From Escherichia coli O157:H7 (GTDB lineage: Bacteria > Pseudomonadota > Gammaproteobacteria > Enterobacterales > Enterobacteriaceae): a DNA stretch of 64,000 nt. The notes under the pieces are model-generated. The model was not told where the DNA came from, made no database searches, and saw nothing but the letters and a program-made list of their open reading frames with translations. Of the stretch, positions 26,468-53,754 are shown one piece after another. The translations under genes were made by a program, and so were the position numbers. The DNA is taken from assembly GCF_013167455.1 (NCBI RefSeq), contig NZ_CP038328.1; one strand, written 5' to 3'. Each line of letters begins with the position of its first letter. Position 1 is the stretch's first letter.

Positions 26468-26469
26468 CT

Positions 26470-27377: not shown

Positions 27378-27408
27378 ATTGAAAACCTCATCTTTTAATA
27401 TCAGTTAA

Positions 27409-30527: not shown

Positions 30528-30603
30528 AATAAACCTCTTTTTCAGGCGAGAGCGCACCTCGCGTTAGCGCCTGATGGAGTGGGTTGAAATTAATTATTAT
30601 TAA

Positions 30604-30885
30604 TTACTTTTTAAGGATAGAAACAATTTGCGCCAGTACTTTTTCTTCGCCAATACCGGTAATAATCGGCAAGCCGTTCACCACCGGGACGTCGAGTTCA
30701 TAAGGCACTTTAGTTGTTGAAACTACCAGTGCTACGCCGTCAGTATTTCCAGGTAAAGAGGCAACGTTGGTTTGGGAATAATTGACGTTAAGACCTTGCT
30801 CTTTGCAATATTCCATGACTTTTTCTGTTACCGCCGTGGATGTGGCAATACCCGTGGCGCAGACAAATAAAATGGTTTGACTCAT
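30604..30885 (-). CDS. PTS EIIB component, galactitol-type
   Basis: 93 aa; MSQTILFVCATGIATST with the phospho-acceptor Cys. Confidence 0.8.
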   Translation of the reverse strand: MSQTILFVCATGIATSTAVTEKVMEYCKEQGLNVNYSQTNVASLPGNTDGVALVVSTTKVPYELDVPVVNGLPIITGIGEEKVLAQIVSILKK

Positions 30886-31355: not shown

Positions 31356-31379
31356 TTTATTCCTCTTAAAAAAGTGTAC

Positions 31380-32135: not shown

Positions 32136-32324
32136 CTGAACATTTACAGTTGTCTATGGACAATCATGGACAACTTCAAGCGTATAGTAGGTGAACGGGA
32201 GAAAAAGAGGATCGAAGCGTCTCACATTTTGAGGGACCAAATCGTGATCAAAAAAATGTGACGTGAGTCGATATTTGTCAGAAGTTTACTGCGCCGTAAG
32301 GAAATAACGGCGCGTTGGTAGGTG

Positions 32325-35128
<2,804 letters not shown>

Positions 35129-37757: not shown

Positions 37758-38345
37758 TCAGTTAACTGAATCGATCCATTGCACACTGTCGGCGGTGAGC
37801 GTAAAGGGAGTAGGGGTGCAGATCGCCAGGCTTAAATTTTCTAGCTGACAATGGCTGACTGACAGCGAGGAGTGATAGGTGCTGTCTACGCTGACGATTT
37901 GCCAGGCGCTGCCACCACGCTGTTTAACGATGGCTTCTTTGCGCGTCCAGATGCGCCAGAACATTTCCAGTTGCTGATCAGGATGCACGGCGTCCATCTC
38001 AGCATGTTCCCCGAGGCTGAACACGGCGTTCGCCAGCCAGCGCCAGTTGGCGCGCGGGCGAATCACTTCGATATCGCAGCCGACTTCGCCTTCATCACTC
38101 AACAGCAGGGCGATATCGTCACCGCTATGGCTTAAGTTGAACCATAGCGGCGTTTCCGGCGCAAATGCAGGTTTGCCTTGTTCGCCATAGATGATCTCCG
38201 GTAGCGGGGAAAGCGTGTGCGAAAGCAATGCACGCCCCGCCAGCCAGCGTTCGCGTCGTGGACCTTGCGGTGCTTGCTCGCGTAAACCCGGTGGCAGTGG
38301 AGCTGCGCTTAAGGTCGAAACTTTCCCCAGAACTATCCGATACAT
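37758..38345 (-). CDS. acpT: 4'-phosphopantetheinyl transferase (holo-ACP synthase type)
   Basis: ORF frame 37758..38465; start placed at internal Met 38345 (MYRIVLGKVSTLSA...), giving 195 aa; Sfp-type motifs GKPAF and WTRKEAIVK. Confidence 0.85.
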   Translation of the reverse strand: MYRIVLGKVSTLSAAPLPPGLREQAPQGPRRERWLAGRALLSHTLSPLPEIIYGEQGKPAFAPETPLWFNLSHSGDDIALLLSDEGEVGCDIEVIRPRANWRWLANAVFSLGEHAEMDAVHPDQQLEMFWRIWTRKEAIVKQRGGSAWQIVSVDSTYHSSLSVSHCQLENLSLAICTPTPFTLTADSVQWIDSVN

Positions 38346-38346
38346 A

Positions 38347-39576
38347 TCAGGGCCAACGTTTAATGATGATGGATGTATTAATGCCGCCAAAGGCAAAGTT
38401 GTTACTCTGCAAAAACTCACAATCAACCTTGCGGGCTTCATGCATGATGTAATCCAGCGCGCCACAATTCGGGTCTGGTTTATTCAGGTTTAGCGTAGGC
38501 GCAAACCAACCTTCGCGCATCATTTGCAGACTCATCCAGGCTTCGAGCGCGCCACAGGCACCAAGCGTATGACCAAAATAACTTTTCAGCGAGGAGAGCG
38601 GCACATTATCACCGTAAATGGTTGCTGTCGCCAGACTTTCTGCCATATCACCGCGATCGGTCGCCGTACCATGCGCTGAAATATAGCCGATATCTTGTGC
38701 GCTTAACCCGGCGATTTTCAGCGATTGCTCCATACAATACTGCATGGTTTCGCGCTGCGGCTGGGTAATATGTGCCGCGTCGCAGTTAGTCGCAAAGCCG
38801 ACGATTTCACCGTAAATGGTCGCGCCGCGCGCTTTGGCGTGCTCCAGTTCTTCGAGAATGAGCGTACCTGCGCCTTCACCAATCACCAGCCCGTCGCGGT
38901 TTTCATCGAACGGTGAAGGTGTGGTTTTCGGCGCATCATTGTGCTGGCTGGTGGCGAAAAGCGTATCAAATACCGCTGCTTCTGAAGGACATAACTCTTC
39001 GGCACCACCAGCAACCATCACCGTTTGATAACCGTGGCGAATGGCTTCCCACGCATAACCGATTGCCTGGCTGCCGGAAGTACAGGCGCTGGAGGTTGGG
39101 ATCACCCGCCCGCGCAGGCCGAAAAAGAGGCCAGTATTAACGGCGGTGGTGTGCGGCATCATCTGCACATAGGTGGTGCCAGTGATGTTATTGGTGTGCT
39201 TTTCCGTCAGCATGGTGGCGAACTCGCTTACCGGGCCGGTACTGCCGGTCGATGAACCGTACGCAATGCCCGTTTCGCCGCTGGTTAATATCGGATCGCC
39301 AATCAACCCTGCCTGCTCTAACGCCAGCTCGCTGGCACGGGTCGACATTTGCGACACGCGGCCCATCGCACGGATACGCTTGCGGGTGTAGTGCTCCGGT
39401 AGCGTGAAATCATCAACAGGCGCGCCAAGCAGGGTGTGCAGCCCATCGTAGACCTGCCACTCCGGCATTTTGCGCACCGCATTTTCATATGCCAGTAAGC
39501 GTGCAGAAACGTCCTGCCAGTTTTCACCAAAGGCAGTCACGCCGCCCATTCCTGTAATCACTACGCGACGTGTCAT
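38347..39576 (-). CDS. Beta-ketoacyl-ACP synthase, FabB/FabF-like (APE cluster)
   Basis: 409 aa; active-site SSACTSG and His-containing AHGTATD and GHTLGACG motifs. Confidence 0.85.
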   Translation of the reverse strand: MTRRVVITGMGGVTAFGENWQDVSARLLAYENAVRKMPEWQVYDGLHTLLGAPVDDFTLPEHYTRKRIRAMGRVSQMSTRASELALEQAGLIGDPILTSGETGIAYGSSTGSTGPVSEFATMLTEKHTNNITGTTYVQMMPHTTAVNTGLFFGLRGRVIPTSSACTSGSQAIGYAWEAIRHGYQTVMVAGGAEELCPSEAAVFDTLFATSQHNDAPKTTPSPFDENRDGLVIGEGAGTLILEELEHAKARGATIYGEIVGFATNCDAAHITQPQRETMQYCMEQSLKIAGLSAQDIGYISAHGTATDRGDMAESLATATIYGDNVPLSSLKSYFGHTLGACGALEAWMSLQMMREGWFAPTLNLNKPDPNCGALDYIMHEARKVDCEFLQSNNFAFGGINTSIIIKRWP

Positions 39577-40304
39577 AACATCCCTCCGTTGATGGAAATA
39601 ACCTGGCGGGTGACGTAACCCGCAATATCAGACATTAAATAGCTGGCAAGCCCGGCAACTTCTTCCGCCTGGCCCATGCGTTTCATGGGGATCATCGACA
39701 TTGCCTCTTTCAGGGCGCTCTCTTCCATTTCGATCATCCCGGTATCAATAAGCCCCGGCGCGATGCAGTTGACGGTGATTTTGCGCTTCGCGAGTTCGAT
39801 AGCCAGCGCTTTTGTTGCGCCGATAATTCCGGCTTTGGCAGCGCTGTAATTCACCTGGCCGCGATTGCCCATTACGCCGGAAACCGAGGATAGCGTGATG
39901 ATGCGCCCACCCTGGCGTGCGCCGATCATCGGCATAATGCACGGCTGAATGACGTTGTAGAAACTGTCGAGGTTGGTGTGGATCACCGCATCCCAGTCGT
40001 CATCGCTTAAAGCCGGAAAAGCGGCATCGCGGGCGATCCCGGCGTTACTGACCACGCCGTACCAGGCACCGTGTTGCGCGATTTCGTGCTCCAGCACTTC
40101 CCGACACTGTTCGCGGTTTGCGACGTCGAAACTGAGCAAACGCCCGTTACCCCCATTGGCGACAATGGCATTCAGCGTTTCCTGAGCGCCTGTGGCGTCA
40201 CGGTGATAGTGAACGCCAATGTTAAAGCCGTCTGCCGCCAGTTGGCAGGCGATGGCGCGACCAATGCCTTTGCTGGCACCAGTAACCAGAACTGAACGAC
40301 TCAT
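39573..40304 (-). CDS. 3-oxoacyl-ACP reductase, SDR family (APE cluster)
   Basis: 243 aa; NAD(P) motif TGASKGIGRA, catalytic YSAAK. Confidence 0.85.
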   Translation of the reverse strand: MSRSVLVTGASKGIGRAIACQLAADGFNIGVHYHRDATGAQETLNAIVANGGNGRLLSFDVANREQCREVLEHEIAQHGAWYGVVSNAGIARDAAFPALSDDDWDAVIHTNLDSFYNVIQPCIMPMIGARQGGRIITLSSVSGVMGNRGQVNYSAAKAGIIGATKALAIELAKRKITVNCIAPGLIDTGMIEMEESALKEAMSMIPMKRMGQAEEVAGLASYLMSDIAGYVTRQVISINGGML

Positions 40305-40768
40305 CAGGACGCTCCTTGTTGAAACAGGGTGGTAAGTTCTTCCGCGGTCGGCTGGAAGGTGTTAATGCGGCCCGTCGCCTCGCCGTCGTTGATGCTGCAC
40401 TCAAAACTGCCGAAGCGATCGTCTTGCATCAGCAGTTTGACGGTAATGGTCAGTGTCTGGCCTGCGGGCAGAATGCCAGTGGTGCAAAGCAATTCACGCG
40501 CGCCCAGTATCATCCCTAACTCAATACTGTTTTTGCCCTGCTGGTGGCGATGCCAGCCAGACCAGACGCCGACGGTTTGCGCCATCAGTTCAAGGGTAAA
40601 CCAGCCGGGGAGATTGCCGTCCGGGTCGAGAAACGGTGCCAGTACGCCACTGGGCGAAACCGTCACGCGGCACACCGCGCTGTCATCGCTGACGCTCACC
40701 ACGTCTTCCAGCAGTAACATGGGCGCGTCGTGGGGCAGATAAGCGCCGGGGGATAAATAGTGGCTCAC
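40304..40768 (-). CDS. Hot-dog fold 3-hydroxyacyl-ACP dehydratase (APE cluster)
   Basis: 154 aa; FabA/FabZ-like hot-dog fold. Confidence 0.7.
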   Translation of the reverse strand: MSHYLSPGAYLPHDAPMLLLEDVVSVSDDSAVCRVTVSPSGVLAPFLDPDGNLPGWFTLELMAQTVGVWSGWHRHQQGKNSIELGMILGARELLCTTGILPAGQTLTITVKLLMQDDRFGSFECSINDGEATGRINTFQPTAEELTTLFQQGAS

Positions 40769-41943
40769 GAAACCCTCCCGAGCAGAATGCTGGCGTTATT
40801 GCCGCCAAAGGCGAAGGAATTGGACAGGATCACCGGACGTGCCAGCGGCTGCGGTTTTTCGATAATGCCACACGGTGGCAGCGTGGGATCGCGCGGCGAC
40901 AGGCTGAAGTCCTGAGCGGGCAGCGGTAAATCACGCTGTAAAATCAACATACTAATTGCCGCCTCGGTAATGCCCGCTGTGCCCAGCGTGTGTCCGGTCA
41001 AATGTTTGGTGGAGCTGCACGGTACGCGTTCGCCAAACAGGGCGTTAACCACCATTGATTCAATCTGATCGTTGAGTTGTGTGGCGGTGCCGTGCAGGTT
41101 GATATAGCCGACGTCATCTGGCGTAAGCTGCGCATCGGTCAGCGCCTGATTAATAGCGCGGATCGCTCCTTCGCCCTGCGGATGCGGGGCTGAAATATGG
41201 TAAGCGTCGCTCGATTCACCAACGCCCAGCAACGCGATGGGCTGCGGTTCCCGGGTCAGCAGCATTAGCCCCGCCCCTTCACCAATGGTGATACCTGCGC
41301 GGTCACGACCAAACGGCTGACATAAGGTTGGCGACAGCGATTCGAGGCTGTGAAAACCGTTAATCGGCATCCGGCTCAGGGTGTCTGCGCCACCCACAAT
41401 GGCGGCATCGACCAGCCCCGCTTCGATAAGCCTGCGCCCGCTGATTATCGCTCTGGCGCTGGAAGAGCAGGCGGTTGAAAGGGTATAGGCCGGGCCGTCG
41501 AGCGCCAGCCAGTGGCTGAGAAAACGCGACGGATCGCCGAGTTCCTGTTGCGCGTAGTGCCATGTGGTGCTCGGCTGCCCGTGGGTGCGCAGGTTAACGT
41601 GCGTGTCGCCTTCATGCAGGCCGGAGGTGCTGGTACCAAGCACAATCGCAATGCGCTCGCGGCCATATTTCGCAATGGCGTCATCAACCTGCGGCTGGAT
41701 CTGCGCCAGCGCCGCCAGCAGGATCTGATTGTTGCGCGAGCGGTGCGCAGCGAATTTTTCCGGGATAAGCGGAAGCTCGCCATCCACGCCAGCCAGGACC
41801 GCCTGCGGATGCCCCTGCAACCAGCCTGCGCGCGGGCGCATGCCGGGAGCAACACCGCGAGTCAGGTTGGTTGCGATTTCGTCAAGGTTATTTCCCAGGG
41901 CGTTGATCATGCCGACGGCGGAAATATAAATCATATCAGTCAC
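40765..41943 (-). CDS. Beta-ketoacyl-ACP synthase (APE cluster)
   Basis: 392 aa; thiolase fold with TACSSS active-site Cys region and HGTAT / GHTLGTAG His motifs. Confidence 0.8.
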   Translation of the reverse strand: MTDMIYISAVGMINALGNNLDEIATNLTRGVAPGMRPRAGWLQGHPQAVLAGVDGELPLIPEKFAAHRSRNNQILLAALAQIQPQVDDAIAKYGRERIAIVLGTSTSGLHEGDTHVNLRTHGQPSTTWHYAQQELGDPSRFLSHWLALDGPAYTLSTACSSSARAIISGRRLIEAGLVDAAIVGGADTLSRMPINGFHSLESLSPTLCQPFGRDRAGITIGEGAGLMLLTREPQPIALLGVGESSDAYHISAPHPQGEGAIRAINQALTDAQLTPDDVGYINLHGTATQLNDQIESMVVNALFGERVPCSSTKHLTGHTLGTAGITEAAISMLILQRDLPLPAQDFSLSPRDPTLPPCGIIEKPQPLARPVILSNSFAFGGNNASILLGRVS

Positions 41944-42520
41944 CTAAGTATTGAATGGTGATGTGGTATTTAAAGACATGCTGCTCAATGCTGATTGGCA
42001 CGCGTTTGCCCTTGCGATTCAGATAGGTGATTTCCGTGACCAGTTTGCCGCTGGCGTTACGCAGCTCGCGTTTGTCACCGTTGTCGCGAAGTGTCCATCC
42101 TGCGGGAAGTTGCGGTTGCCAGGCGCTAATCGGCCAGTGGCTGAGCATCACGTCAGCCAGTACCTGACTTGCGGGCGGTAACTGTGGGACGACGATGGAT
42201 TGCTCGGCGCGTAGCCCTTGCGCATCGTAGGTCACCAGAAACAGGCGAATGCCGACCGACGACAGCCCGGCAAGGGTGATTTTCTGATCGTCGGCGTTAA
42301 GCATCACTAACAGCGACTGGGTTTTGCCGTTGAAGCTGCCGGTCAACAGTTGCTGCGAATTGACTGCGGGTGAAATCCCTGGTGCCGGCAGCGTGATGCG
42401 CGTGCCAGGTTGCAGCCACGCCTGCGGGCGGCCTTCCTGTTCTGGTTGCGAGTGGCTACAGCCGGTGAGGATAAGCGTAGCGGTCAGGGCGAACGCTCGC
42501 CAGAATGTGGATTTGATCAT
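41936..42520 (-). CDS. Lipoprotein, DUF3261-like (APE cluster)
   Basis: 194 aa; signal peptide with lipobox LTGC. Confidence 0.65.
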   Translation of the reverse strand: MIKSTFWRAFALTATLILTGCSHSQPEQEGRPQAWLQPGTRITLPAPGISPAVNSQQLLTGSFNGKTQSLLVMLNADDQKITLAGLSSVGIRLFLVTYDAQGLRAEQSIVVPQLPPASQVLADVMLSHWPISAWQPQLPAGWTLRDNGDKRELRNASGKLVTEITYLNRKGKRVPISIEQHVFKYHITIQYLGD

Positions 42521-44835
42521 TTTTTTGTTCTCTTTTTATCGGGCATAGCCAGCGGCGAAAGCAGGAAGGCGGTGAAAATACCGCTCACCAGCACAATGCC
42601 AAAACTGCTGATGGCCTGGGTGGCGCTGAATACCAGCATACCCAGCGTCAGCAAGGTGGTGAGCATTGCCAGCGCGATCGCCAGTAGCGAAGTTAACGGT
42701 GTACCGCGCGGATTACTGAAAAACAGCGTGTAGTTGATACCGATGCCAAGCACCAGCACCAGCGCCAGCAGCGAAAAGAGATTCACCGCCTGCCCGCTCA
42801 TCGCCAGCACCGCCAGACCACAGCCCAGCGAAAGCACCGAAGGCACCAGGCTGATAAGCCCTTTGCGCCAGCCGAGACGGGCCACTGCGCCGCAGGCAAT
42901 CACTGCCAGCGCCACCAGCAACAAGCCGGTTAAGACGTAGCGGTAAAGTGCGAACAATTCATCAAAGGTGCTTTTGCGATCAACCCAGGCAATGCCGCAA
43001 GGGTAATATGTGGCGATTTCCTGCATCAACGCGCTACTTTTAACCCCTTCAACCGGCACCAGTACGCCGCTTTCGCCGTTTTCCAGCGTCAGCCACAGCA
43101 GACGCCAGCCTTCACTGGCGGGGCTTGCCAGCCATTCATCAACGTTCACTGGCATGGCGTTGAGATCCGGGTTCACTGCCGTCAGCCCGGCATTTTGCAG
43201 CGCTTTTGTTACTGTCGGGGCCGCCGTTTTCAGCAGTTGTAAATCTTCCTCCTGCCGCGCAAGGGAGTTCAGCGGAATGGTGCGGTAGTTGCTGATAAGC
43301 CCCTCTTTTTTCGCATACTCAAGTGAGGCGGTATATTTCTCCAGTCGCCGCAATGTTTGCTGTGGCGAATCGCCGTAAACCACAAACCATTTTTGATCGA
43401 CGCTCTGCCCGGTCAGGGCGGTAATGGCTTTTTCCTGCGCCAGAATATGCTGCGGTAGCGCCTGTAACTGCGAGATATCGTCATCGACGCGTAGCATTGA
43501 CATCCCCGCCAGCGAAAACAGCGCCAGCGCGACGGGCAGACCCAGCGACAGTTTTTTATTACGCCGCCACGCTGCCAGCCAGCGTAGCATCAGCGCCATC
43601 GCCGGAACCGGACGCACCGGCAGGCCACGGCACAGCCACGGATGCCAGAACAGGACGGTCAGACAGGAGGCGCTCAACCCGACGGCGGCAAAAATCGCCA
43701 TCTGGCGAATGCCGGGGAAGGGGGCGAGCATCATAATCAGATACGCCGCCACGGTGGTGAGCAGCGCCAGTAGCAAGGCATTGCGTACTTTCGCCAGGCT
43801 TTGCCACGGCGAAACGTCGTTGCCGTGAACCATCCGCTCGGTGAGATAATAGAGCGTGTAGTCAGCGGAAATGCCGATAACGCTCATGCTCATCACCAGC
43901 GTCATCAGGTGTAATTCACCGAAAATCAATAAAGTGGCGACCGTTCCCGCCAGCGCGCCGATGCCGATGGAAATCACGCAAAGCAGCAACGGGCGTAAAG
44001 AGCGGAACACCGCCACAATCAGCAATATCACCCCCAGCAGCGTAGCCACGCCCAGGGTGGAGATATCCTGCTTCGCCTGTTGGCTGGCGTAATCGCTGTA
44101 AAACACCGTGCCGCGCGAGAGCAACTGTGCCTGCGGGTAACGCGTTTTCAGATCCTTTTCCAGCGTATTCAGGGTCGTGATCAGCTGGTGGGTTTGCTGC
44201 ATATCAAACGACGATCCCGCCAGTTCGCCGTGCAGCAGATACCAGTAGTTGCCCTGGGGATCCTGCGTCACCAGCCAACCGTCCATCAGCCGCAAACGCT
44301 GGCCGTTTTTCGCCATTGCCAGCTGCGAGCCGCGCATTAACATCAGCGGATCGTTTTGCAGCTCCTTGCCGCTTACGCCGGAGAATGCGGAATAAAGCTG
44401 GGAGAGGATCCACTGTGCCTGCGCTTCGCCGCCGTTTTGCAGGCGGGCGCGGGTGTTGGGGTCAATCAGGCCGTTGCGATGCTGCCAGAAAAACGCTCCC
44501 CACGCCTGCTGGCTGGCGGCATCCATTGGCCCTTTAACGTCGCCGAGCGCAGCGGATTTTTGCAGCAGCGTCAGCCACTCCTGAGCGACCAAAGGATTAG
44601 CCTCTTTACCGGGGCTGACCAGCCACACCAGTTGGCGGTCAAGACGCTGCATAAAGCCGTCATTCAGCGCCGGAGGAATATCGCCCATCGTCTGTTTGGG
44701 TAACATAGCCAGCACGCTACTGTTCAGCCGTGATTGCGGCAGCAGGATCAGCAACGCCACCGCCATGACCAGGCAGACTAGCCCCCATAACAGCGCGGGG
44801 CGTTTACTGGGCGGCAAAACGTTGGCGTTCGTCAT
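42517..44835 (-). CDS. MMPL/RND-superfamily membrane exporter (APE cluster)
   Basis: 772 aa; two TM bundles separated by large periplasmic domains. Confidence 0.75.
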   Translation of the reverse strand: MTNANVLPPSKRPALLWGLVCLVMAVALLILLPQSRLNSSVLAMLPKQTMGDIPPALNDGFMQRLDRQLVWLVSPGKEANPLVAQEWLTLLQKSAALGDVKGPMDAASQQAWGAFFWQHRNGLIDPNTRARLQNGGEAQAQWILSQLYSAFSGVSGKELQNDPLMLMRGSQLAMAKNGQRLRLMDGWLVTQDPQGNYWYLLHGELAGSSFDMQQTHQLITTLNTLEKDLKTRYPQAQLLSRGTVFYSDYASQQAKQDISTLGVATLLGVILLIVAVFRSLRPLLLCVISIGIGALAGTVATLLIFGELHLMTLVMSMSVIGISADYTLYYLTERMVHGNDVSPWQSLAKVRNALLLALLTTVAAYLIMMLAPFPGIRQMAIFAAVGLSASCLTVLFWHPWLCRGLPVRPVPAMALMLRWLAAWRRNKKLSLGLPVALALFSLAGMSMLRVDDDISQLQALPQHILAQEKAITALTGQSVDQKWFVVYGDSPQQTLRRLEKYTASLEYAKKEGLISNYRTIPLNSLARQEEDLQLLKTAAPTVTKALQNAGLTAVNPDLNAMPVNVDEWLASPASEGWRLLWLTLENGESGVLVPVEGVKSSALMQEIATYYPCGIAWVDRKSTFDELFALYRYVLTGLLLVALAVIACGAVARLGWRKGLISLVPSVLSLGCGLAVLAMSGQAVNLFSLLALVLVLGIGINYTLFFSNPRGTPLTSLLAIALAMLTTLLTLGMLVFSATQAISSFGIVLVSGIFTAFLLSPLAMPDKKRTKK

Positions 44836-45409
44836 CGGTCAGTTGCGCTGGCGTCAGTTGATGTTGGGTAAGAGCAATATCGGTGCGATCGCCCTGTTTA
44901 TCATTAAGTTGAATGCTCTCCAGATAGGTTTTCCCGGCGAGATCGATGGTGTTGAAAATTTTATCCAGCGGCGTGGTGGTCGGCGTCAGGCGCAGCGTCC
45001 AGCGGCCTTCGCCTTTGTCAGCAAATTCGACGCGGAAGTTTTGTTCCAGCACTTTGCGATCGGCCTGGAACAACGCGCGCAGCAGGTGGTTAAACTGGAA
45101 CATCTGCGGGTTGTTTTCTGCCGTGATGATTTGCGGCGGCTGACCGTTGATCACCTGCACCATGCGTTTATCGTCCAGTAATAGTTGCATGGGGAACGGT
45201 GAGGTTTGATCCCACAACAGCCCCTGGTCGCGGGCGATCAACATCTGGCCCTGAGATCGCAGCGGCTGCGGCAGATCTTTAATCGTCCGGGTTTGATCGA
45301 AATGGGCGCGGATCACCGGTTGTTCGGTAAAGCGTTGCTGAAGATCGTCCAGGGTCAGGGCGCTCACAAACGGGCTAATCAGCAGCGCCAGCAGCGGTAA
45401 AAATTTCAT
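44804..45409 (-). CDS. LolA-like periplasmic lipoprotein-carrier protein (APE cluster)
   Basis: 201 aa; signal peptide MKFLPLLALLISPFVSA; LolA-like. Confidence 0.7.
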   Translation of the reverse strand: MKFLPLLALLISPFVSALTLDDLQQRFTEQPVIRAHFDQTRTIKDLPQPLRSQGQMLIARDQGLLWDQTSPFPMQLLLDDKRMVQVINGQPPQIITAENNPQMFQFNHLLRALFQADRKVLEQNFRVEFADKGEGRWTLRLTPTTTPLDKIFNTIDLAGKTYLESIQLNDKQGDRTDIALTQHQLTPAQLTDDERQRFAAQ

Positions 45410-45828
45410 GGTTTGACTCCCATGCGTTCAAACAGAATATCGGGGCTGACAAAGCACAGTTCGCGACTTTGCTCGTCGACCGCGACCTGAATGGTGTATC
45501 CGGTGGTGGCGCGTTTGCCCGTTTCGGCATCGAAAATCTGATAGCCAATCCGCAGACGGTTTTCGAACTCTTCGATATGCGCACGCACGCGGATGCGTTG
45601 CTCAAAGGTGAGGGCGTGGCGATATTTCACCCGCGCATCGACCACTGGCCACAAATAACCGGACTCTTTCATTTGCCGATAGCCGTAATTGAACTGGTTG
45701 AGCAGCGCCTCGCGAGCCACTTCAAAGTAGCGAAAATAGTTACCGTGCCAGGCCACGCCCATCATATCGACGTCGTGAAAGGGAATGGTCAGCTCGACTT
45801 CTGCGGTAAATCGGGGATCGTTCAGCAC
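45406..45828 (-). CDS. Hot-dog (4HBT/YbgC-like) acyl thioesterase (APE cluster)
   Basis: 140 aa; FHDVDMMGVAWHGNYFRYFE thioesterase motif region. Confidence 0.75.
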   Translation of the reverse strand: MLNDPRFTAEVELTIPFHDVDMMGVAWHGNYFRYFEVAREALLNQFNYGYRQMKESGYLWPVVDARVKYRHALTFEQRIRVRAHIEEFENRLRIGYQIFDAETGKRATTGYTIQVAVDEQSRELCFVSPDILFERMGVKP

Positions 45829-45831
45829 CCT

Positions 45832-47508
45832 TTACTCCTTGTCCTGAATTTCCGGCAGTTGCCAGAAATCGAAAAAATTAAACCAGTCGAGAGGCGACTG
45901 GAGCGCGTAATGTTCCAGACGCGCGGCGTAATGATCGATAGCGTTTTGCAGCGCCTGTTGGCGTTCGCCGCGCGGCAGCTGCAGTGGGTCGGCAAAGCTT
46001 TCGCAGTGAATATGCAGCTTGCCGTGCTGGCGCAGGGCGAAAATCAGATTCACCGGGCAGCGCAAAATAGAGGCGAGAATAAACGGCCCCTGTGGGAAAG
46101 GCGCAGGCTGGCCCATAAACGAACTCCAGCAGACGCGCCAGTCGCCGCCGCGTTGCGGGTTGACGGCGATGCGGTCACCGACAATCGCCACCCATTCGCC
46201 GTTATCCAGCTTCTCTTTCAGCAGGATGGCGGTTTCTGGGCCGATATCTGTTACCGGCATCAGGTTAATGCCTGCCTGAGGAGCCATCTCCTGCATTATC
46301 TGTTTAAAGCGTTGGGCGTTTTCGCTAAACACCAGCGCGTTAATGGTTTTGTAGCCCTGAATTTTTGCCAGCGCCCGGCACACTTCCACATCGCCAAGAT
46401 GCGAGGCCAGCAGCAATTTGCCGCGCGGATCGCGGACGTCAAGCGCTGCTTCTGCGCCTGGCGCAAACAGCACATCACGCCCTGGTTGTAGCTCGCCGCG
46501 CCAGCTGGCGATTTTGTCGAGCATGGCATTACCGAAACGTAGAAAGTGCTGATAGCTGTTGAGTTTTGCCGCCTGTGGTTGATGCTGTCGTACACGGGCG
46601 AGCCAGTCTTGCGACGCTTTGCGCGCACGAGAAGCAGTGAGCCAGTAGACGCCCACCACCGGGTAAAGCAGCGCGCTAAACGCCGTTCTTCCCAGCAGAC
46701 GCCAGACCAGCAGCATCAGGCGCATTCCCCATAATCCTTTCACTTCACTCTGCCGCGCCCAGTGGCAGGAAGAGCGGCGCATCAGCAGTGAAGGAATACG
46801 CGGCAACATGCCGAAAAACAGACGCGTGTGCATGAGCGAGATGCGGACGTTATCTTTCAGGGCATCAAAATGCGAAAGCCCGTCCAGTGGATAGGTGACG
46901 CGGGTCGGCACGAAATAGCTGGTATTTCCCTGCCAGTAGAGGCGCACCATCACTTCGGTGTCGAAATCCATCCGCTTGCCGATGGTGGCGTGTTTTGCCA
47001 GTTGCAGCGTTGGCGCAACCGGATAAACGCGAAAACCGCACATGCTGTCTTTCAGTTGCAGGGAGAGCGTTTCGATCCATACCCAGACGTGGGTGACCCA
47101 GCGCCCGTAAAGCCGTGAGCGGGGGATGGAGTCATCGTAAATTGGCTGGCCGGAGATCAGTGCCGCAGGTTGTTGTTCAGCGAGAGCCAGCAGTTTAGGG
47201 ATATCTTCAATCGCGTGCTGACCGTCAGCATCCACCTGCACCGCATGGCTGAACCCTGCGTCTGCCGCTGCCTGTAAGCCACGCATCACCGCCGCGCCTT
47301 TGCCTGCGTTTTCTGCCAGGCGAATTAAGGTCACGCCAGGCTGTTCGGCAAGCAGACTGTCCAGTTGCTGTTGTGTGGTGGCATCGCTGCCGTCATCCAC
47401 CACAATACAGGGCAGATTAAATGGCTTAAGACGCGCCAGCACGCCCGGCATCATCGCGCCGTGGTTGTAGCAGGGTATCAACACGCAGGGAGAAAAGTTT
47501 ACCGACAT
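45832..47508 (-). CDS. Family-2 glycosyltransferase fused to a C-terminal acyltransferase-like domain (APE cluster)
   Basis: 558 aa; N-terminal GT-A fold motifs (VVDDGSD, VDADGQH); C-terminal half resembles lipid-A-type late acyltransferases. Confidence 0.65.
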   Translation of the reverse strand: MSVNFSPCVLIPCYNHGAMMPGVLARLKPFNLPCIVVDDGSDATTQQQLDSLLAEQPGVTLIRLAENAGKGAAVMRGLQAAADAGFSHAVQVDADGQHAIEDIPKLLALAEQQPAALISGQPIYDDSIPRSRLYGRWVTHVWVWIETLSLQLKDSMCGFRVYPVAPTLQLAKHATIGKRMDFDTEVMVRLYWQGNTSYFVPTRVTYPLDGLSHFDALKDNVRISLMHTRLFFGMLPRIPSLLMRRSSCHWARQSEVKGLWGMRLMLLVWRLLGRTAFSALLYPVVGVYWLTASRARKASQDWLARVRQHQPQAAKLNSYQHFLRFGNAMLDKIASWRGELQPGRDVLFAPGAEAALDVRDPRGKLLLASHLGDVEVCRALAKIQGYKTINALVFSENAQRFKQIMQEMAPQAGINLMPVTDIGPETAILLKEKLDNGEWVAIVGDRIAVNPQRGGDWRVCWSSFMGQPAPFPQGPFILASILRCPVNLIFALRQHGKLHIHCESFADPLQLPRGERQQALQNAIDHYAARLEHYALQSPLDWFNFFDFWQLPEIQDKE

Positions 47509-47852
47509 AGGCGGATCTTCCCGCTACTGGCGGTGTGGCGGGCGTCACCGTCGTGACGCTGATAGCTAAAGCTCAGAATCTGGCGTTCTTCCTGCCAGTT
47601 AAGCGCGAGCGTGACGCGGTTTTCCGGCAGCAACGGAGACTGGAATTTTATGTTCTGAATGGAGTGAAAACGCCAGCCAGGCGCGAGCAGATTGAGCGCG
47701 TAGCTCATCGCCCAGTCGATTTGCGCAACTCCTGGGAGTAATGGTTGCACGGCAAAATGACCGCGAAACCAGAACAGATCCGCCCTGAGATGCAGAACAA
47801 TTTCAAGGTGATTCGTTTGTGCCTGATGGCGCTCGATTTCATGGGGCTTCAT
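47499..47852 (-). CDS. Hot-dog dehydratase, FabA-like (APE cluster)
   Basis: ORF frame 47499..47882; internal Met at 47852 preferred (14-nt overlap with the upstream gene), 47882 possible. Confidence 0.6.
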   Translation of the reverse strand: MKPHEIERHQAQTNHLEIVLHLRADLFWFRGHFAVQPLLPGVAQIDWAMSYALNLLAPGWRFHSIQNIKFQSPLLPENRVTLALNWQEERQILSFSYQRHDGDARHTASSGKIRLCR

Positions 47853-49200
47853 GAAATAACTCCTGTAATTGCGCATAGACACGCTTGTTCATACTGTTTA
47901 CTGGCATTTCATCAATAACGCGCCAGTAACGCGGAATAGCAACTGGCTCCAGCGTCGGGCGCAGTAAACGCCGCCAGGTCATTTCCTGGCTATGCCCGCC
48001 GCCGTTCTGCCATTGCAGATGAGCTTCGTCATCCAGCACCAGCAAAACGCCTATGCTCTGACGCCCGCCGCGCGTAACGGGAACTGCCGCCGCCTCGCGA
48101 ATGCCGTCCAGCGCCAGTAGACGTTGTTCTACTTCCTGGAGTGAAATACGTTTTTCTTCAATCTTAACGATGCGCCCACGACGCCCCATCAGATGGAACT
48201 GACCATCTTCGCTAAACTGTAAGATATCGTCGAGTAACATGCCGTTATCTTCCGCTATCAGCGGTGAAAAGAGGCGAAAGGCATCGCCTTCGGCCTGGAA
48301 CTGCATACCTGGGAGGGGTAGCCAGCGGCGTTGCTCTTGTTCGCGGTAGCGCCAGGCGATGACGCCAGTTTCCGTGCTGCCGTAGATTTCATCAGGCCAG
48401 ACGCGCAGCCAGCTCGCGGTATGTTGTACATCCTGCCACGGCAGCTCACCGCCAGCAGAGAGAAGCACCTGAACGGGTGGCGGAGAAAGCTGGGTATCCA
48501 GGCGCTTCAAAAATGCCGGGCTGCTGATGAAGATATAGCGATGCTGATGACTCAACGCGGCAAACTGTTCGACATACCAGAGCATGGCGGCGTGCAGCGG
48601 TAATCCCAACGCCATGGGCAGGAAAACGCGAAAAGTCAGGCCGTACAAATGCTGCGGCAATACGGAACCGACGACACGACAACCCGCCAGACGTGCGCCT
48701 AATCGTTCAGCCAGCAGTTCTGCTTCACGATCCAGCAAATGAACAGGTTTAATCGCCCGTTTCGGCTGTCCCGTGGAACCGGAGGTAAACAGCTCGATAA
48801 AAGCCTCTGGCGCTATAGCGGCAAAGGTGAAGGATTGTGTCGCGATTTGTGGAGAACTTGCTACCAACAGCAATGAACCTTGCCAGTTAAGTTCGCTGTC
48901 GCTAAGCACACCATCAAAAAGTTCACGTTGCTCGTTAAGCTGGATAACACGGTTATGCCCCGGAAGCACCGGCGTTTTTCCGGCGTGTAGCGTGGCGAGC
49001 AGGGCAACGATAAACAGATAGCTGTTCTCAAAGCACAGCGCCCAGCGTTCACCCGGCTGTTGCTGCAAGCGGCAGATAAGTTGCGCGACATCGTGACGCA
49101 AATCGCCCAGCGTCCAGGTACTTTCGTTCAGCCACGCAATGGGTGTGTCATCAGGGCGTGGCGCAGTCAGCCAGCGTGCAAGCGGTAAGGTCTGCTTCAT
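47839..49200 (-). CDS. AMP-dependent synthetase/ligase (acyl/aryl-carrier-protein ligase) (APE cluster)
   Basis: ORF frame 47839..49239; Met at 49200 gives an ATGA overlap with the upstream gene; adenylate-forming motifs TSGSTGQPK and YGSTETG. Confidence 0.8.
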   Translation of the reverse strand: MKQTLPLARWLTAPRPDDTPIAWLNESTWTLGDLRHDVAQLICRLQQQPGERWALCFENSYLFIVALLATLHAGKTPVLPGHNRVIQLNEQRELFDGVLSDSELNWQGSLLLVASSPQIATQSFTFAAIAPEAFIELFTSGSTGQPKRAIKPVHLLDREAELLAERLGARLAGCRVVGSVLPQHLYGLTFRVFLPMALGLPLHAAMLWYVEQFAALSHQHRYIFISSPAFLKRLDTQLSPPPVQVLLSAGGELPWQDVQHTASWLRVWPDEIYGSTETGVIAWRYREQEQRRWLPLPGMQFQAEGDAFRLFSPLIAEDNGMLLDDILQFSEDGQFHLMGRRGRIVKIEEKRISLQEVEQRLLALDGIREAAAVPVTRGGRQSIGVLLVLDDEAHLQWQNGGGHSQEMTWRRLLRPTLEPVAIPRYWRVIDEMPVNSMNKRVYAQLQELFHEAP

Positions 49201-49778
49201 GCGCGATCTCTTTTCATCACCTGACGGCGCAGCAGCCATTCACCAGCCATTAACGTCCCCATCAACAAATAAGCAATCATGCCGTTCCAGGCGGTCCATA
49301 ACGACATATCGGCATAAAGCGCGGTAAAGAGGGCAATTCCACCGTTAATGATGAAAAAGCCGCACCAGATTTGCGTGACGTGGCGGGTATAGCGCACGCC
49401 CTTTTCCGGGAGGTCTGGCTCCTGCAACCGCGCCAGCCGCTCAACTATCGGCATTGCCGACCACAGCGAACCGCCAAAAACCGCCAGCATGACCGCGTTA
49501 ACCACTACCGGGTAAAACAGCAGTAGCTGGTGCGTTTTCAACATAAAGCTGGCGACACATAATGCGATGCCCACGACAGCGACGAGTTGCGTGACGGCTT
49601 GTAAAGGCCCCGCCTGGCGACGGGTCTGGCGCAGACGCAACAAAAGCAGCAACGCCATTAGCGGTAACAGCCAGTGCAGGCCGTTATGCGCTAAGCCAAA
49701 CCAAATCACAAACGGCCAGGCGAGCAGCAATAATCCAGTCAGCAGCTTAATCATCGGTAGCGAGCGAATGCCCGACAT
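49197..49778 (-). CDS. Integral membrane protein of unknown function (APE cluster)
   Basis: 193 aa; about 5 predicted TM helices. Confidence 0.6.
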   Translation of the reverse strand: MSGIRSLPMIKLLTGLLLLAWPFVIWFGLAHNGLHWLLPLMALLLLLRLRQTRRQAGPLQAVTQLVAVVGIALCVASFMLKTHQLLLFYPVVVNAVMLAVFGGSLWSAMPIVERLARLQEPDLPEKGVRYTRHVTQIWCGFFIINGGIALFTALYADMSLWTAWNGMIAYLLMGTLMAGEWLLRRQVMKRDRA

Positions 49779-49782
49779 CAGA

Positions 49783-50034
49783 TCAGGCTTCTTGTAGCAG
49801 GCGTTCTACAGCCTCGACGACATCCTGGACTGTACGCACTGCTTTAAACTCTTCCGGCTTGATTTTCTTACCGGTTTTCTTTTGCAGGTGCACAATCATG
49901 TCAACGGCGTCGATGCTGTCCAGTTCCAGATCTTCGTACAGGCGCGTTTCAGGTTTGATGTCCTGCGGATCGATTTCAAACAGCTTAACCAGCAGGGCTG
50001 AGACTTCCTGATAGACGGTTTGTTGTTCTGTCAT
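49783..50034 (-). CDS. Acyl carrier protein (APE cluster)
   Basis: 83 aa; phosphopantetheine-attachment motif LELDSIDAVDM. Confidence 0.85.
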   Translation of the reverse strand: MTEQQTVYQEVSALLVKLFEIDPQDIKPETRLYEDLELDSIDAVDMIVHLQKKTGKKIKPEEFKAVRTVQDVVEAVERLLQEA

Positions 50035-50045
50035 GATGGCTTTCC

Positions 50046-50303
50046 TCAGGCACGTTGCGCAGCAATGAAAGAGGCCAGAGTGGCGACGGAGAAAAAGTGC
50101 TGACGCATCTCTTCGCTTTCCGCAGAGAGCACGATGCCGTACTCATTTTTTACTGCCAGTCCCAGTTCCAGGGCATCGATAGAGTCCAGCCCTAAACCGT
50201 CGCCAAACAGCGGCGCGTCGGTATCGATATCATCAGGCGTCAACTCGTCCAGATTGAGGGTGCTGATGATGAGGTTTTTAATTTCCAGATAAAGCGCTTG
50301 CAT
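50046..50303 (-). CDS. Acyl carrier protein (APE cluster)
   Basis: 85 aa; motif LGLDSIDALEL. Confidence 0.85.
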   Translation of the reverse strand: MQALYLEIKNLIISTLNLDELTPDDIDTDAPLFGDGLGLDSIDALELGLAVKNEYGIVLSAESEEMRQHFFSVATLASFIAAQRA

Positions 50304-51099
50304 TATTTATTCCTGAGAGAGGTAAACAACCTTGTTGTAATTGAAGCAAAAGATGCCGGTTTAACTGCCTTGCTGCCAGCGCCGGTTCTTGTGAAGTTGC
50401 ATCGTAAAATTTATTGATTTCAACCCGACCATGGACTGCAACCGTAAAAAACGGCCGGTCAGGTGGAACGTCATACCATTTACTTTGTTTATCCAGCAGA
50501 TGCTCGCTACAGCCGATTGTCACGATGCGTAAATCGCTGGCGCAGCGCACGGCAATATTCGCCGCCCCGCGCTGCAGCGTCATTTTTTCACCGGGCTTCG
50601 TTCGTGTGCCTTCGGGGAAAATCAGGATAGTGTCACCCTGTGCCAGTCGCTGTTGGCAGCGGGGTAACAGAGTTTCAGCTTCGCTGTTGATTAAATAATC
50701 TGTCGCCCGCACGACGCCGCCAAGAAAAGGATTTTTTAACAGCGCGCTTTTCACCAGGCAGTCAGTTTCTGGCATGACTGACGCCAGCAGCACGTAATCG
50801 ATCAGCGTGGGATGATTGGCTACGACGAGGCAACCGCGTTCCTGATGTAAGATTTCAGCGCCATCAATACGATAATCCAGTACGCCAAGCCCTTTCGCGA
50901 CAGTTAAAAACAGGCGAAAACTGGCGGCAATGCTGCGACGCGCCAAACGACGGCGGCGGGAAGTATCCCACACCAAAACTAACAATATGTTAAACCACAC
51001 GACAGAAAGCAGCAGGCCGCCGAGACCAAACAGGGCAAAACATAACCCGGTCATGACCAGTCGCCAGGTCCACTCCAGACGTGACATCAGCTTACTCAT
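50278..51099 (-). CDS. Lysophospholipid (1-acyl-sn-glycerol-3-phosphate-type) acyltransferase (APE cluster)
   Basis: ORF frame 50278..51117; Met at 51099 gives an ATGA overlap with the upstream gene; acyltransferase motifs VVANHPTLIDY and FPEGTRT. Confidence 0.75.
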   Translation of the reverse strand: MSKLMSRLEWTWRLVMTGLCFALFGLGGLLLSVVWFNILLVLVWDTSRRRRLARRSIAASFRLFLTVAKGLGVLDYRIDGAEILHQERGCLVVANHPTLIDYVLLASVMPETDCLVKSALLKNPFLGGVVRATDYLINSEAETLLPRCQQRLAQGDTILIFPEGTRTKPGEKMTLQRGAANIAVRCASDLRIVTIGCSEHLLDKQSKWYDVPPDRPFFTVAVHGRVEINKFYDATSQEPALAARQLNRHLLLQLQQGCLPLSGINNASALSGN

Positions 51100-51842
51100 C
51101 TGTGGCTCCAGCGCCATTGCACGCGCTCGCCAGGCAGTGAAAATGTGTCTACATTTTGTAAATAGTGCTGTAAAAACAACATGCTTTGCGGCAGTGTTGT
51201 TTCATTGCCCGCAATGGCTGACTGCGTTTCACATTGCCAGTCATCGCCAGCTTCAATCACCAGCGCGACGGCGTACGGCCAGGTCGGCATTTCTGATGGC
51301 AGTTGTGGGTGATAAAACTCGGGCAGGAAACCGTCAAAATCGACCATCAGCACGCGCTGGTATCCCGCTTGTAGCAGGCTAAGCACTTCACACAAACCTT
51401 GCTGGAAACTATCGCGACCAGCCGAAAGCGATGACGAAACGCTCGGCTGTTTGGCCGCAATGGTCAGGTTACCCACGGAAGAGTTGTGTACGGAGAGCGC
51501 GAAGTCCGTCGGAGAAAGCGCCTGTTCGGTTGCCAGTGCATGAACAATGCGGTAATTGCGCTCCAGTTCGCCATGACGACTGGTATACAAAACGGCGTCT
51601 GGTTGATGGCGGCGTAGCATTGCCAGACCGCATTCAACAGCCAGTTTGCTCCCGGAGCTGAGGCGGCGGGCGGTCATCATTGGCAGTTCACTTAATTTTG
51701 CCAACGGTGCTGTCGGGTCAATTGCCTGAGGCTGACGTGACCACTCCTGCCATTGCAGCGTTTCACTAAGTCCAGGCGCTCTTGCCTGCCAGTCGAGAAT
51801 GTTTAATGCAAATTTCATCAACGCGCGCCCGCGGTAAACCAA
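51096..51842 (-). CDS. Ketosynthase-like partner / chain-length-factor-like protein (APE cluster)
   Basis: 248 aa; thiolase-like N-terminal region without an obvious active-site Cys motif. Confidence 0.55.
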   Translation of the reverse strand: MVYRGRALMKFALNILDWQARAPGLSETLQWQEWSRQPQAIDPTAPLAKLSELPMMTARRLSSGSKLAVECGLAMLRRHQPDAVLYTSRHGELERNYRIVHALATEQALSPTDFALSVHNSSVGNLTIAAKQPSVSSSLSAGRDSFQQGLCEVLSLLQAGYQRVLMVDFDGFLPEFYHPQLPSEMPTWPYAVALVIEAGDDWQCETQSAIAGNETTLPQSMLFLQHYLQNVDTFSLPGERVQWRWSHR

Positions 51843-51858
51843 AATTATTAAGTGACGA

Positions 51859-52926
51859 TTATTTCTTTTGGCATATCAAAAGTGTATGCCCAACGCCTAA
51901 ATTATCGTGGCGCTCTGCTACCTGGAATCCTGCTTTATTCAGATAGTCGTAAAATTTCTCTGCACTATAGAAACGGCTGTTACCGTTTGCCATGCAGGTA
52001 AAATAAAGTGAGGACGCGTTCAGGCTAAACGATGCTGCTTCAAACCGCTGCGCATCCCAGAACAACTCCATGATGCAAACTTTTGCGCCAGGCTTCATTA
52101 CGCTGGCAATTTTGCTGAGTATGCTAATTATTTGTTCGGGTGAAAAACAGTCTAAAAATTGGCTCATCCACCAGATATCAGCCTCGCCCGGTAATGGGGC
52201 ATCGCTTAGCATATCCACCGCATGGAAATCTATGCGATCAGAAAAACCTGCATTCGCGATATTTTCTTTCGCTAGTACGATTTGTTGTGGCAGATCTAAT
52301 AACGTAACGGCGATGTTTTCATTGTATTTGCAGCAACGCAAAGCCCACTTACCCGTATTGCCGCCTACATCGTACAATGTTGTGGGGTTGTTGGCGAATA
52401 CATAAGGCAGTGCGGCGTTAAATGCGCCATCTGAATAGTAATGATCAAACGCAAACCAGCTTTCACGAGCGGCGTCTGGTAATTGCGAAAGTGCCGGATA
52501 TATCGTCGACCAGTCGCCAAATACTTTTAACCCGGAAGGTTTTCCTTCATTGAGTGAATCGGCGAGGAAGAAGAGCCCCTGGTAACAGACATCCTGGGTG
52601 AAATCCATATTCACGCGAGTCATAGTGTCATGCAGGAGGTAATGACCGATTTTCGCCAGGTAATAAATTCCCTCTTTACAGGTAATAATTCGCCCGCTTA
52701 AGCCCATATCTAACAGAACGCTGGTAGCATATTCGTTGATATGGCTATGTTCGGTGATATCAGCCAGCGTTGCGCCATGTTTGCCTTGCCGATCCAGATA
52801 TGAAAGTACACCCGCATTACGTAGGCAGAGTGCTGTTTGAAAAAGCATAGGGGCAAAGGCAATGCGTTGAGCTTCGGTAATCGCATCCAGTGCGCTAAGA
52901 GAATCCTGTTCGTACATGTTGGGCAC
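51859..52926 (-). CDS. SAM-dependent O-methyltransferase (APE cluster)
   Basis: 355 aa; class I SAM-binding motif DVGGNTGKWA; N-terminal dimerisation-like region. Confidence 0.75.
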   Translation of the reverse strand: MPNMYEQDSLSALDAITEAQRIAFAPMLFQTALCLRNAGVLSYLDRQGKHGATLADITEHSHINEYATSVLLDMGLSGRIITCKEGIYYLAKIGHYLLHDTMTRVNMDFTQDVCYQGLFFLADSLNEGKPSGLKVFGDWSTIYPALSQLPDAARESWFAFDHYYSDGAFNAALPYVFANNPTTLYDVGGNTGKWALRCCKYNENIAVTLLDLPQQIVLAKENIANAGFSDRIDFHAVDMLSDAPLPGEADIWWMSQFLDCFSPEQIISILSKIASVMKPGAKVCIMELFWDAQRFEAASFSLNASSLYFTCMANGNSRFYSAEKFYDYLNKAGFQVAERHDNLGVGHTLLICQKK

Positions 52927-52985
52927 AACCTGTTAAGAGGGAATTAAATTATTATCGGACCGCAACGGCCCGACTTTAGGAAGAA

Positions 52986-53363
52986 TTATAAATCTGCGCC
53001 CGCTGACAAATTCAGTTGAATATCTTTGTCGAGATTGCGGACCCAGCGATTGTAGTTTTTATGAATTTGTCCGCCTGACGCTTGTAGGTTCTGGCTATTT
53101 TCATAATTGATATCGTAGCTGGATGCCGTGTAGTTAATGCGTATTTCCGCTGAATGATCGCGTGACTGTTGACGTGCTTTAATTATGCCTTGTCCGGCTT
53201 CGGACATAATCCATTTGCGTTCAACGCCAGCTTTCAGAATCGCTTTTTTCACTTGTTCCTGGGTATGACCAGCGCTGACGGTTGAGTGAACCTGATCAAT
53301 TGGCGCAGTACGCGCGCAACCTGCTAAAGCACCCACAACAGCAATAGCCGCAAACCATTTCAT
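52986..53363 (-). CDS. Small lipoprotein of unknown function at the edge of the APE island
   Basis: ORF frame 52986..53375; start likely Met 53363 (MKWFAAIAVVGALAGC...), lipobox LAGC. Confidence 0.55.
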   Translation of the reverse strand: MKWFAAIAVVGALAGCARTAPIDQVHSTVSAGHTQEQVKKAILKAGVERKWIMSEAGQGIIKARQQSRDHSAEIRINYTASSYDINYENSQNLQASGGQIHKNYNRWVRNLDKDIQLNLSAGADL

Positions 53364-53708
53364 GTAATGTCTCATTAGAACCCCATTAAAGTATTGTTTT
53401 TACGAGTAAAGCAAGTTTTAACTGTAATTGCTGGCATCACTATTCTTTATTTAGAGAAAAAATTACTTGTGAGATAAGTCAGTAAGTGCACATCAGAGTA
53501 AAAATCTCTGAAATGACTAAATTACTGCCAGCAGGGACCAACTATAAGTGAGTGAGAAAAATGAGGCAATAAAAATAACACAATGTTATCAGTGCATTCT
53601 TTGAGAAGGATTTAATCGCTATTCGGCGTTTATATATATTTGACTTAAGGAATGGTTTTTTTAAATTAATTTTCTGAATAATGTTTCATCATTTCCTCAA
53701 ATCAAATG

Positions 53709-53741
53709 GCCACTGTTAGATAAACGGTGGCCATTGCCTGC
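53709..53741 (-). terminator. Hairpin just downstream of yhhT
   Basis: aaatggccactgttagataaacggtggccattgcc: stem tggccac / gtggcca. Confidence 0.5.
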
Positions 53742-53754
53742 TCAGGAGGTGCTA

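Follow-up and report, generated by a model that had tools for sequence, protein, structure and literature searches.

Between acpT and yhhT, the 64,000-nucleotide window of Escherichia coli O157:H7 DNA analyzed here (contig NZ_CP038328.1; positions below are those of the window) carries 18 minus-strand genes, apeA to apeR, at 38347 to 53363. It is highly probable (about 90%) that these genes are the aryl-polyene (APE) biosynthetic gene cluster of O157:H7, orthologous to the APEEc cluster of strain CFT073; we infer the nature of the product from that of the orthologues. The flanking genes are acpT (37758 to 38345) and yhhT (53755 to 54804). A 16.3-kb query from the window was 100% identical to EDL933, to Sakai, and to numerous further O157 genomes. 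The identical genes in Sakai are ECs_4324 to ECs_4341, and the yhhT-acpT segment of that strain has been named S-loop #225 (PMC9205054); the label O-island 138 of the original prediction would denote the same segment.

The assignment is carried by a protein-by-protein comparison with the fetched CFT073 locus. Gene content and order are those of apeA to apeR of APEEc (c1204 to c1186), gene for gene (18/18), and 14 of the 18 proteins are 92 to 100% identical to their CFT073 counterparts. Protein lengths are equal except for 1 amino acid in ApeH and 4 in ApeA, and nucleotide identity is 97.2% from apeR to apeJ and 95.3% from apeF to apeB. For the CFT073 cluster, heterologous expression yields pigment, single-gene deletions have been phenotyped and deletions abolish pigment, and oxidative-stress and biofilm phenotypes have been described (PMC8253772). 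The original prediction had assigned the locus to the aryl-polyene family and expected antiSMASH to report an aryl polyene; such a call has been published for the same sequence, ECs_4324 to ECs_4341 (antiSMASH 6.0, BGC0000836; PMC9205054). The same genes are more than 95% identical to those of E. fergusonii over their full length (PMC9205054). Several of the proteins are homologous to characterized APE proteins with Protein Data Bank (PDB) entries (ApeO and ApeC, 6QSP; ApeR, 7F27 and 4EWG; ApeE, 9LS6). No report on the chemistry of the O157 cluster product was found in the literature searched.

Gene content and proposed pathway

All 18 open reading frames (ORFs) are intact, with no internal stop codons. 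Junctions range from a 32-nucleotide (nt) overlap to a 68-nt gap, and 11 of the 17 overlap, in agreement with the single-strand run of overlapping genes that had been predicted between acpT and yhhT. The span originally given, 37758 to 53363, does contain the cluster but also takes in acpT. The number of genes was right; the list of functions had 17 entries and omitted the small lipoprotein gene apeA. The mean G+C content of the cluster is 55.3%, versus 51.0% for the remainder of the window. It declines along the cluster, with about 60% at apeO, 46% at apeA and apeB, and 33% in the AT-rich leader that separates yhhT from apeA (53364 to 53754, minus strand, 391 nt). The leader contains a terminator-like hairpin of yhhT just 3′ of that gene and a single sigma-70-like match at 53569 to 53541. 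Matches at this consensus level numbered 3 against 2.6 expected, i.e., chance. Since the promoter and terminator scans performed at chance level, they were excluded as evidence on regulation. An Rfam scan detected no structured RNA within the cluster. Long antisense ORFs inside the cluster, among them a plus-strand ORF at 45469 to 46491 (340 amino acids, TTG start) opposite apeJ and apeK, matched no family in NCBIfam or PHROGs. The antisense ORFs are probably spurious, artifacts of the GC-rich coding strand.

Domain calls were made with NCBIfam (using its curated cut-offs), Pfam, and motif checks; identities given below are to the CFT073 proteins. The polyketide core comprises two ketosynthases and a partner subunit. 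ApeR (38347 to 39576) is a homodimeric ketosynthase (NF006587, 1.5e-234, 778 bits versus a cut-off of 470; PDB 4EWG, 1e-164, and the Acinetobacter baumannii ApeR 7F27, 5e-158) with intact Cys/His/His motifs and 99.8% identity. ApeO (40765 to 41934) is the elongating ketosynthase (NF006618, 2.4e-167, above the cut-off; PDB 6QSP_A, 1.3e-174), and its Cys/His/His motifs are likewise intact (ACSS, HGTAT, and GHTLG). Its heterodimer partner ApeC (51096 to 51818; PF13723, 1.1e-66) is ketosynthase-like but without these motifs, as for a chain-length factor, and matches Xenorhabdus doucetiae ApeC (6QSP_B) at 6e-89. ApeQ (39573 to 40304) is a 3-ketoacyl-acyl carrier protein (ACP) reductase of the FabG2 type (TIGR01831, 1.6e-143, above the cut-off) that also matches flexirubin FlxB (2.7e-79) and carries TGASKGIG and YSAAK motifs. 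Two hot-dog proteins, the 3-hydroxyacyl-ACP dehydratase ApeI (47499 to 47852) and the dehydratase ApeP (40304 to 40768), have weak FabZ matches (4e-05 and 8e-06, respectively); ApeP is 98.7% identical to its counterpart and ApeI 71.8%, the CFT073 protein being labeled "ApeI family dehydratase" in RefSeq. No gene of the enoyl reductase type was found among the 18.

Starter loading and chain carriage involve three proteins. ApeE (50046 to 50303) is the starter ACP (NF006617, above the cut-off; A. baumannii ApeE 9LS6, 1.6e-25), with a DSID serine motif and a glycine-rich GDGLG motif; it would hold the aryl-polyene chain. ApeF (49783 to 50034), a second ACP (NF003757, 7.7e-43, above the cut-off), has the DSID motif and 95.2% identity. 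ApeH (47839 to 49200) is an adenylating enzyme with AMP-binding family matches, the best model being 4-coumarate-coenzyme A (CoA) ligase (1.6e-23, below the cut-off), and with TSGSTGQPK and YGSTE motifs and a C-terminal Lys; its allele is divergent. By analogy with characterized systems, ApeH would be an aryl-ACP synthetase that loads 4-hydroxybenzoate on ApeE.

Among the tailoring enzymes, ApeB (51859 to 52917; 94.3% identity) is an S-adenosylmethionine-dependent methyltransferase of the FlxJ family (E value of 3.8e-142; 473 bits, under the cut-off of 560) with a DVGGNTG motif. The FlxJ match supports the methyltransferase part of the earlier label "O-methyltransferase"; the "O-" is a family label only, and the products of characterized orthologues carry C-methyl groups on the ring (PMC8253772; 10.1101/2020.12.19.423268). 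ApeD (50278 to 51099; 96.7% identity) is a lysophospholipid (glycerol-3-phosphate-type) acyltransferase (TIGR00530 domain match, 1.7e-15) with HX4D (HPTLID) and PEGTR motifs. ApeK (45406 to 45828; TIGR00051, 1.3e-16) is a YbgC/FadM-type hot-dog thioesterase and is 100% identical to its counterpart.

The remaining proteins are membrane or envelope proteins. ApeM (42517 to 44835) is an MMPL/RND-superfamily exporter with twelve hydrophobic segments (HAE3, HpnN, and MMPL matches; RefSeq, "MMPL family transporter"). ApeL (44804 to 45409) is a LolA-like periplasmic carrier with an N-terminal hydrophobic signal; its matches to LolA (TIGR00547, 1.6e-16) and flexirubin LolA2 (8.7e-15) are both below the cut-off. 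ApeN (41936 to 42520) is a LolB-like lipoprotein whose lipobox, LTGC, was seen directly and whose DUF3261 label comes from RefSeq annotation only, with no match in NCBIfam or PHROGs. ApeG (49197 to 49778; 80.8% identity) is a small polytopic protein with five hydrophobic segments and no match in Pfam or PHROGs; its COG4648 family name is the RefSeq label on the CFT073-type copy. The small lipoprotein gene apeA (52986 to 53363), a RefSeq coding sequence encoding a signal peptide and an LAGC lipobox, is peripheral and the most variable of the cluster; its product is 62.8% identical to CFT073 ApeA and, like ApeG and ApeN, has no PHROGs family, nor does it have one in Pfam or NCBIfam. Apart from the "O-" prefix, the domain labels of the original prediction are thus supported by NCBIfam, Pfam, motifs, and the ApeJ model described below, with RefSeq as the one source for DUF3261.

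ApeJ (45832 to 47508) combines an N-terminal GT2 glycosyltransferase domain (PF00535, 1.8e-19) with a second domain, residues 237 to 558, for which direct Pfam and PDB sequence searches found nothing. The best NCBIfam match of the GT2 domain is PpgS, a polyprenyl-phospho-N-acetylgalactosamine (GalNAc) synthase, below the cut-off. A first AlphaFold model, built on an alignment of 21 sequences at least 82% identical, had a predicted local distance difference test (pLDDT) score of <50 in the C-terminal domain and was discarded. Comparison of a shallow ApeJ profile with LpxL by hhalign aligned the HX4E motif alone and was not significant; a deeper profile gave a weak match (E value of 0.018). Three lines of evidence support the label "GT2/acyltransferase" given in the original prediction. 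PF03279, the lipid A acyltransferase family, matched 62 of 73 distant homologues of the C-terminal domain; a second AlphaFold 2 model (pLDDT, 89.7) matched mycobacterial PatA and A. baumannii LpxM in Foldseek (E value of about 1e-11, probability of 1.0); and a His-x4-Glu motif is conserved, with the His invariant in all 73 sequences. The model thus supports a PatA/LpxM-type acyltransferase in the C-terminal half. ApeJ shares the fold and the His-x4-Glu motif with PatA and LpxM at 15 to 20% sequence identity but differs from them in its fusion to a GT2 domain and in its proposed acyl donor, an ApeE-bound aryl polyene rather than palmitoyl-CoA or acyl-ACP. The substrate of PatA is a glycophospholipid, which it acylates at the 6-OH of a sugar; the acylation at the GalNAc 6-OH proposed for ApeJ would be a parallel reaction.

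The orthologues in CFT073, X. doucetiae, and other APE systems suggest the following pathway. AcpT would activate both ApeE and ApeF to holo-ACPs. ApeH would adenylate 4-hydroxybenzoate supplied by UbiC and load it directly on ApeE, with no CoA intermediate. The ketosynthase/chain-length-factor pair ApeO-ApeC, together with ApeR, would elongate the starter with malonyl units; reduction of the beta-keto groups by ApeQ and dehydration by ApeI and ApeP, without enoyl reduction, would give a conjugated hexaene, and ApeB would methylate the ring. ApeD is predicted to transfer a second conjugated acyl chain, carried by ApeF, to a lysophospholipid. The GT2 domain of ApeJ would add GalNAc-phosphate, its PatA/LpxM-like domain would esterify the aryl polyene to the sugar, and ApeK may act as an auxiliary thioesterase. 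ApeM, ApeG, ApeL, ApeN, and possibly ApeA would transport the pigment-lipid to the outer membrane, where it is expected to quench reactive oxygen species and promote biofilm formation. The final product of the X. doucetiae pathway is an aryl polyene esterified at the 6-position of GalNAc, which is phosphate-linked to a diacylglycerol bearing a second conjugated acyl chain; ApeF, ApeD, and ApeJ have been assigned to the lipid steps and ApeM, ApeG, ApeL, and ApeN to export (10.1101/2020.12.19.423268). By analogy, the PpgS match of the GT2 domain would fit the GalNAc-phosphate scheme of that species.

The acpT junction and loss of the cluster from K-12

acpT encodes an Sfp-type phosphopantetheinyl transferase (NF007676, 2.5e-119, above the cut-off) and lies on the same strand as the cluster. 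A single nucleotide separates the apeR stop codon from the acpT ATG (CCCTGAtATG), and a scan of the junction found no promoter-like or terminator-like site. These two features suggest that acpT is cotranscribed with the ape operon, effectively as gene 19, and that it may be translationally coupled to apeR. The tandem ACPs had been put forward as the substrates of AcpT; this link agrees with De Lay and Cronan (2006), who, as cited in PMC8253772, found that AcpT activates the EDL933 homologues of ApeE and ApeF.

As stated in the original prediction, the cluster is absent from K-12: MG1655 lacks 38366 to 53758 (15,393 bp). What remains of O157-type apeR in K-12 is exactly its final 18 nt, ATTAAACGTTGGCCCTGA, directly before the acpT ATG (window positions 38346 to 38365; positions 4951 to 4969 of the extracted K-12 locus, L005). 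Identical codons end the apeR gene of the CFT073 copy, which is sited elsewhere and has no adjacent acpT, so the 18-nt remnant derives from apeR and not from older flanking DNA. At the sequence level, this remnant is direct evidence that K-12 lost the cluster by deletion, consistent with the account of an "orphaned AcpT." Between yhhT and this remnant, K-12 has a 38-nt filler, whose local alignment to the cluster scored no better than that of shuffled sequences.

In 4856 of the 5426 complete E. coli genomes (~89%), the K-12-type scar junction is uninterrupted. About 570 complete genomes carry the cluster at yhhT-acpT, 308 at at least 99% identity to the window and 264 at 95 to 99%, and a further 254 have a CFT073-type copy elsewhere, with 91% query coverage in two pieces. 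acpT-yhhT is very probably the ancestral Escherichia site, from which K-12 and most other E. coli deleted the cluster. apeR was found at 832 places in 824 complete E. coli genomes, a handful of which have two copies. The CFT073 island (positions 7703 to 8905 and 39265 to 44805 of the extracted locus, L004) starts with a tyrosine integrase, and the neighbors of the cluster there are decayed sugar-metabolism genes and a ShlB/hemagglutinin pair with a frameshift. O157 also has, outside the window, a hemagglutinin-linked partial aryl-polyene-like segment (ECs_1282 to ECs_1289; PMC9205054).

The cluster is, as originally stated, the largest accessory block, being the larger of two blocks in the window that K-12 lacks. 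The other (25764 to 32326, 6.6 kb) lies between nikR and yhhJ, where K-12 has rhsB-yhhH-yrhC-yhhI. It encodes a GntR regulator, galactitol-type phosphotransferase system components IIA, IIB, and IIC, an FGGY kinase, an HPr-like protein, a class II aldolase, and a HicA/HicB toxin-antitoxin pair. Elsewhere in the window, two AgrB-family small-RNA matches beside dinQ (3225 to 3308 and 3459 to 3543, minus strand; 107 and 92 bits) correspond to K-12 agrA and agrB. A DUF4049 paralogue by yhiJ (16980 to 18590; EDL933 4454953 to 4456563) is an intact coding sequence in EDL933, and its K-12 counterpart, yhiL, is an annotated pseudogene.

Expression and starter specificity

Several observations weigh against the aryl-polyene assignment or limit its reach. 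ApeH, ApeI, ApeG, and ApeA are just 63 to 81% identical to the characterized CFT073 proteins, which leaves the choice and loading of the starter as probably, but not certainly, the same. The roles given to ApeA, ApeG, ApeL, and ApeN are literature proposals. As to expression, the leader has a G+C content of 33% and its lone promoter match is at chance level, and the homologous cluster of X. doucetiae is silent in the laboratory (10.1101/2020.12.19.423268).

The features that bear on expression would also suit a cryptic or silenced relic, intact in sequence but unexpressed and contributing to no phenotype, and the deletion of the cluster from most complete E. coli genomes could be read in the same way. 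Such a relic is unlikely in O157:H7. All 18 ORFs are intact with their catalytic motifs, and the cluster is kept at at least 99% identity in 308 genomes. Further, according to the literature, the APE genes of O157 are induced when host epithelial cells are present and on the roots of spinach, and ApeH is expressed in human infection.

A second possibility arises from the position of the divergence between the two E. coli cluster types. Sliding nucleotide identity in 60-nt steps located a divergent patch, with sharp bounds, at about 47560 to 49380, which spans apeH completely, apeI for the most part, and apeG in its 3′ part. Identity is 58 to 73% in most steps and 71.9% over 47400 to 49780, between flanks of about 97%. 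A second divergent stretch runs from about 52720 through apeA (52720 to 53363; 53 to 87% per step, 65.8% over apeA). The abrupt boundaries of the patch indicate, in our reading of the alignment, recombinational replacement of a starter-loading module. ApeH is 66.2% identical between O157 and CFT073, below the 75 to 76% between O157 ApeH and the Citrobacter and Klebsiella proteins. The O157-type protein is the Escherichia allele (95% identity within the E. fergusonii/E. coli cluster; next best, 76%); outside E. coli, the CFT073-type protein has its nearest relative at 87% identity. No donor of either ApeH allele was identified from homologue identities.

Such a module could in principle select another aryl starter or load the carrier protein differently, so that the cluster at acpT would make an aryl polyene chemically unlike that of CFT073. 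If so, O157:H7 and roughly 570 other E. coli with complete genomes would produce a distinct aryl-polyene lipid, chemically different from the sole characterized E. coli aryl-polyene lipid, that of CFT073. We regard this as improbable. At 183 positions conserved in at least 95% of 120 Enterobacterales homologues, O157 ApeH keeps 180 and CFT073 ApeH 178 (~98%), and from this we judge that both alleles probably share one function. The ApeH differences are distributed evenly along the protein, and ApeH diverges fast in general (65 to 76% between genera, versus 80 to 83% for the C-terminal domain of ApeJ). Its partner ApeE is 96.5% identical between the types. Moreover, the characterized proteobacterial APE systems all start from 4-hydroxybenzoate (literature including PMC8253772 and PMC12624758).

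The fatty acid synthase-like enzymes, LpxM/PatA-like acyltransferase, GT2 domain, Lol-like proteins, and old Sakai annotations ("fabF," "fabG," "surfactin synthetase," and "acyltransferase") might instead suggest a system devoted to fatty acids or to the acylation of lipid A or capsule. This reading is effectively refuted by the gene-for-gene orthology to a cluster that yields aryl-polyene pigment on heterologous expression and whose deletions abolish it. The ketosynthase/chain-length-factor pair and aryl-acid-type adenylating enzyme are foreign to lipid A and capsule pathways, and the cluster has no enoyl reductase gene.

Aryl-polyene lipids are widespread outer-membrane pigments that guard Gram-negative bacteria against oxidative killing and promote biofilm formation, and for these reasons the cluster is relevant to how well O157:H7 fares on produce and in its hosts. 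Earlier publications already cover the cluster, the family to which it belongs, its absence from K-12, and the AcpT link, so the analysis offers no new biology, and the original prediction was right that the system is not a novel one. The additions are modest: the K-12 loss scar, present in 89% of genomes; the 1-nt apeR-acpT gap; the quantification of two cluster types, with a recombined apeI-apeH-apeG/apeA module; and the fold evidence for ApeJ.

Comparison with known aryl-polyene systems

The closest known system, APEEc of CFT073, differs from the O157 cluster in site and in part of its alleles. The CFT073 cluster lies in an integrase-bounded island near pga and dgcT with no acpT beside it, whereas the O157 cluster is at acpT; at yhhT-acpT, CFT073 keeps the K-12-type deletion scar where O157 carries the cluster. 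The protein alleles diverge in ApeI (72%), ApeH (66%), ApeG (81%), and ApeA (63%).

The X. doucetiae system has the same enzyme set. O157 ApeO and ApeC match its 6QSP heterodimer (1e-174 and 6e-89, respectively), and the roles proposed there for ApeD, ApeJ, and ApeE/ApeF would carry over to the O157 cluster. The species belongs to a different genus, and its published cluster comprises apeB to apeR without apeA, which O157 includes. A complete aryl-polyene lipid structure has been solved for X. doucetiae only, with gene roles described alongside it (10.1101/2020.12.19.423268).

The core enzymes of A. baumannii and its starter carrier protein are homologous to those of O157 (ApeO-ApeC, 7F28; ApeR, 7F27; ApeE, 9LS6), and the glycine-rich loop of ApeE is common to both species. 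The A. baumannii enzymes are more distant (ApeO, 5e-82; ApeC, 7e-15), and the product reported is a longer polyene (PMC12624758, which also studied ApeH-ApeE selectivity). The flexirubin and xanthomonadin clusters of Bacteroidetes and Xanthomonas share with the O157 cluster the broad APE superfamily. ApeB, ApeQ, and ApeL match the flexirubin models FlxJ, FlxB, and LolA2, all below the curated cut-offs, but these clusters differ in tailoring (halogenation and a dialkylresorcinol ester) and in gene organization.

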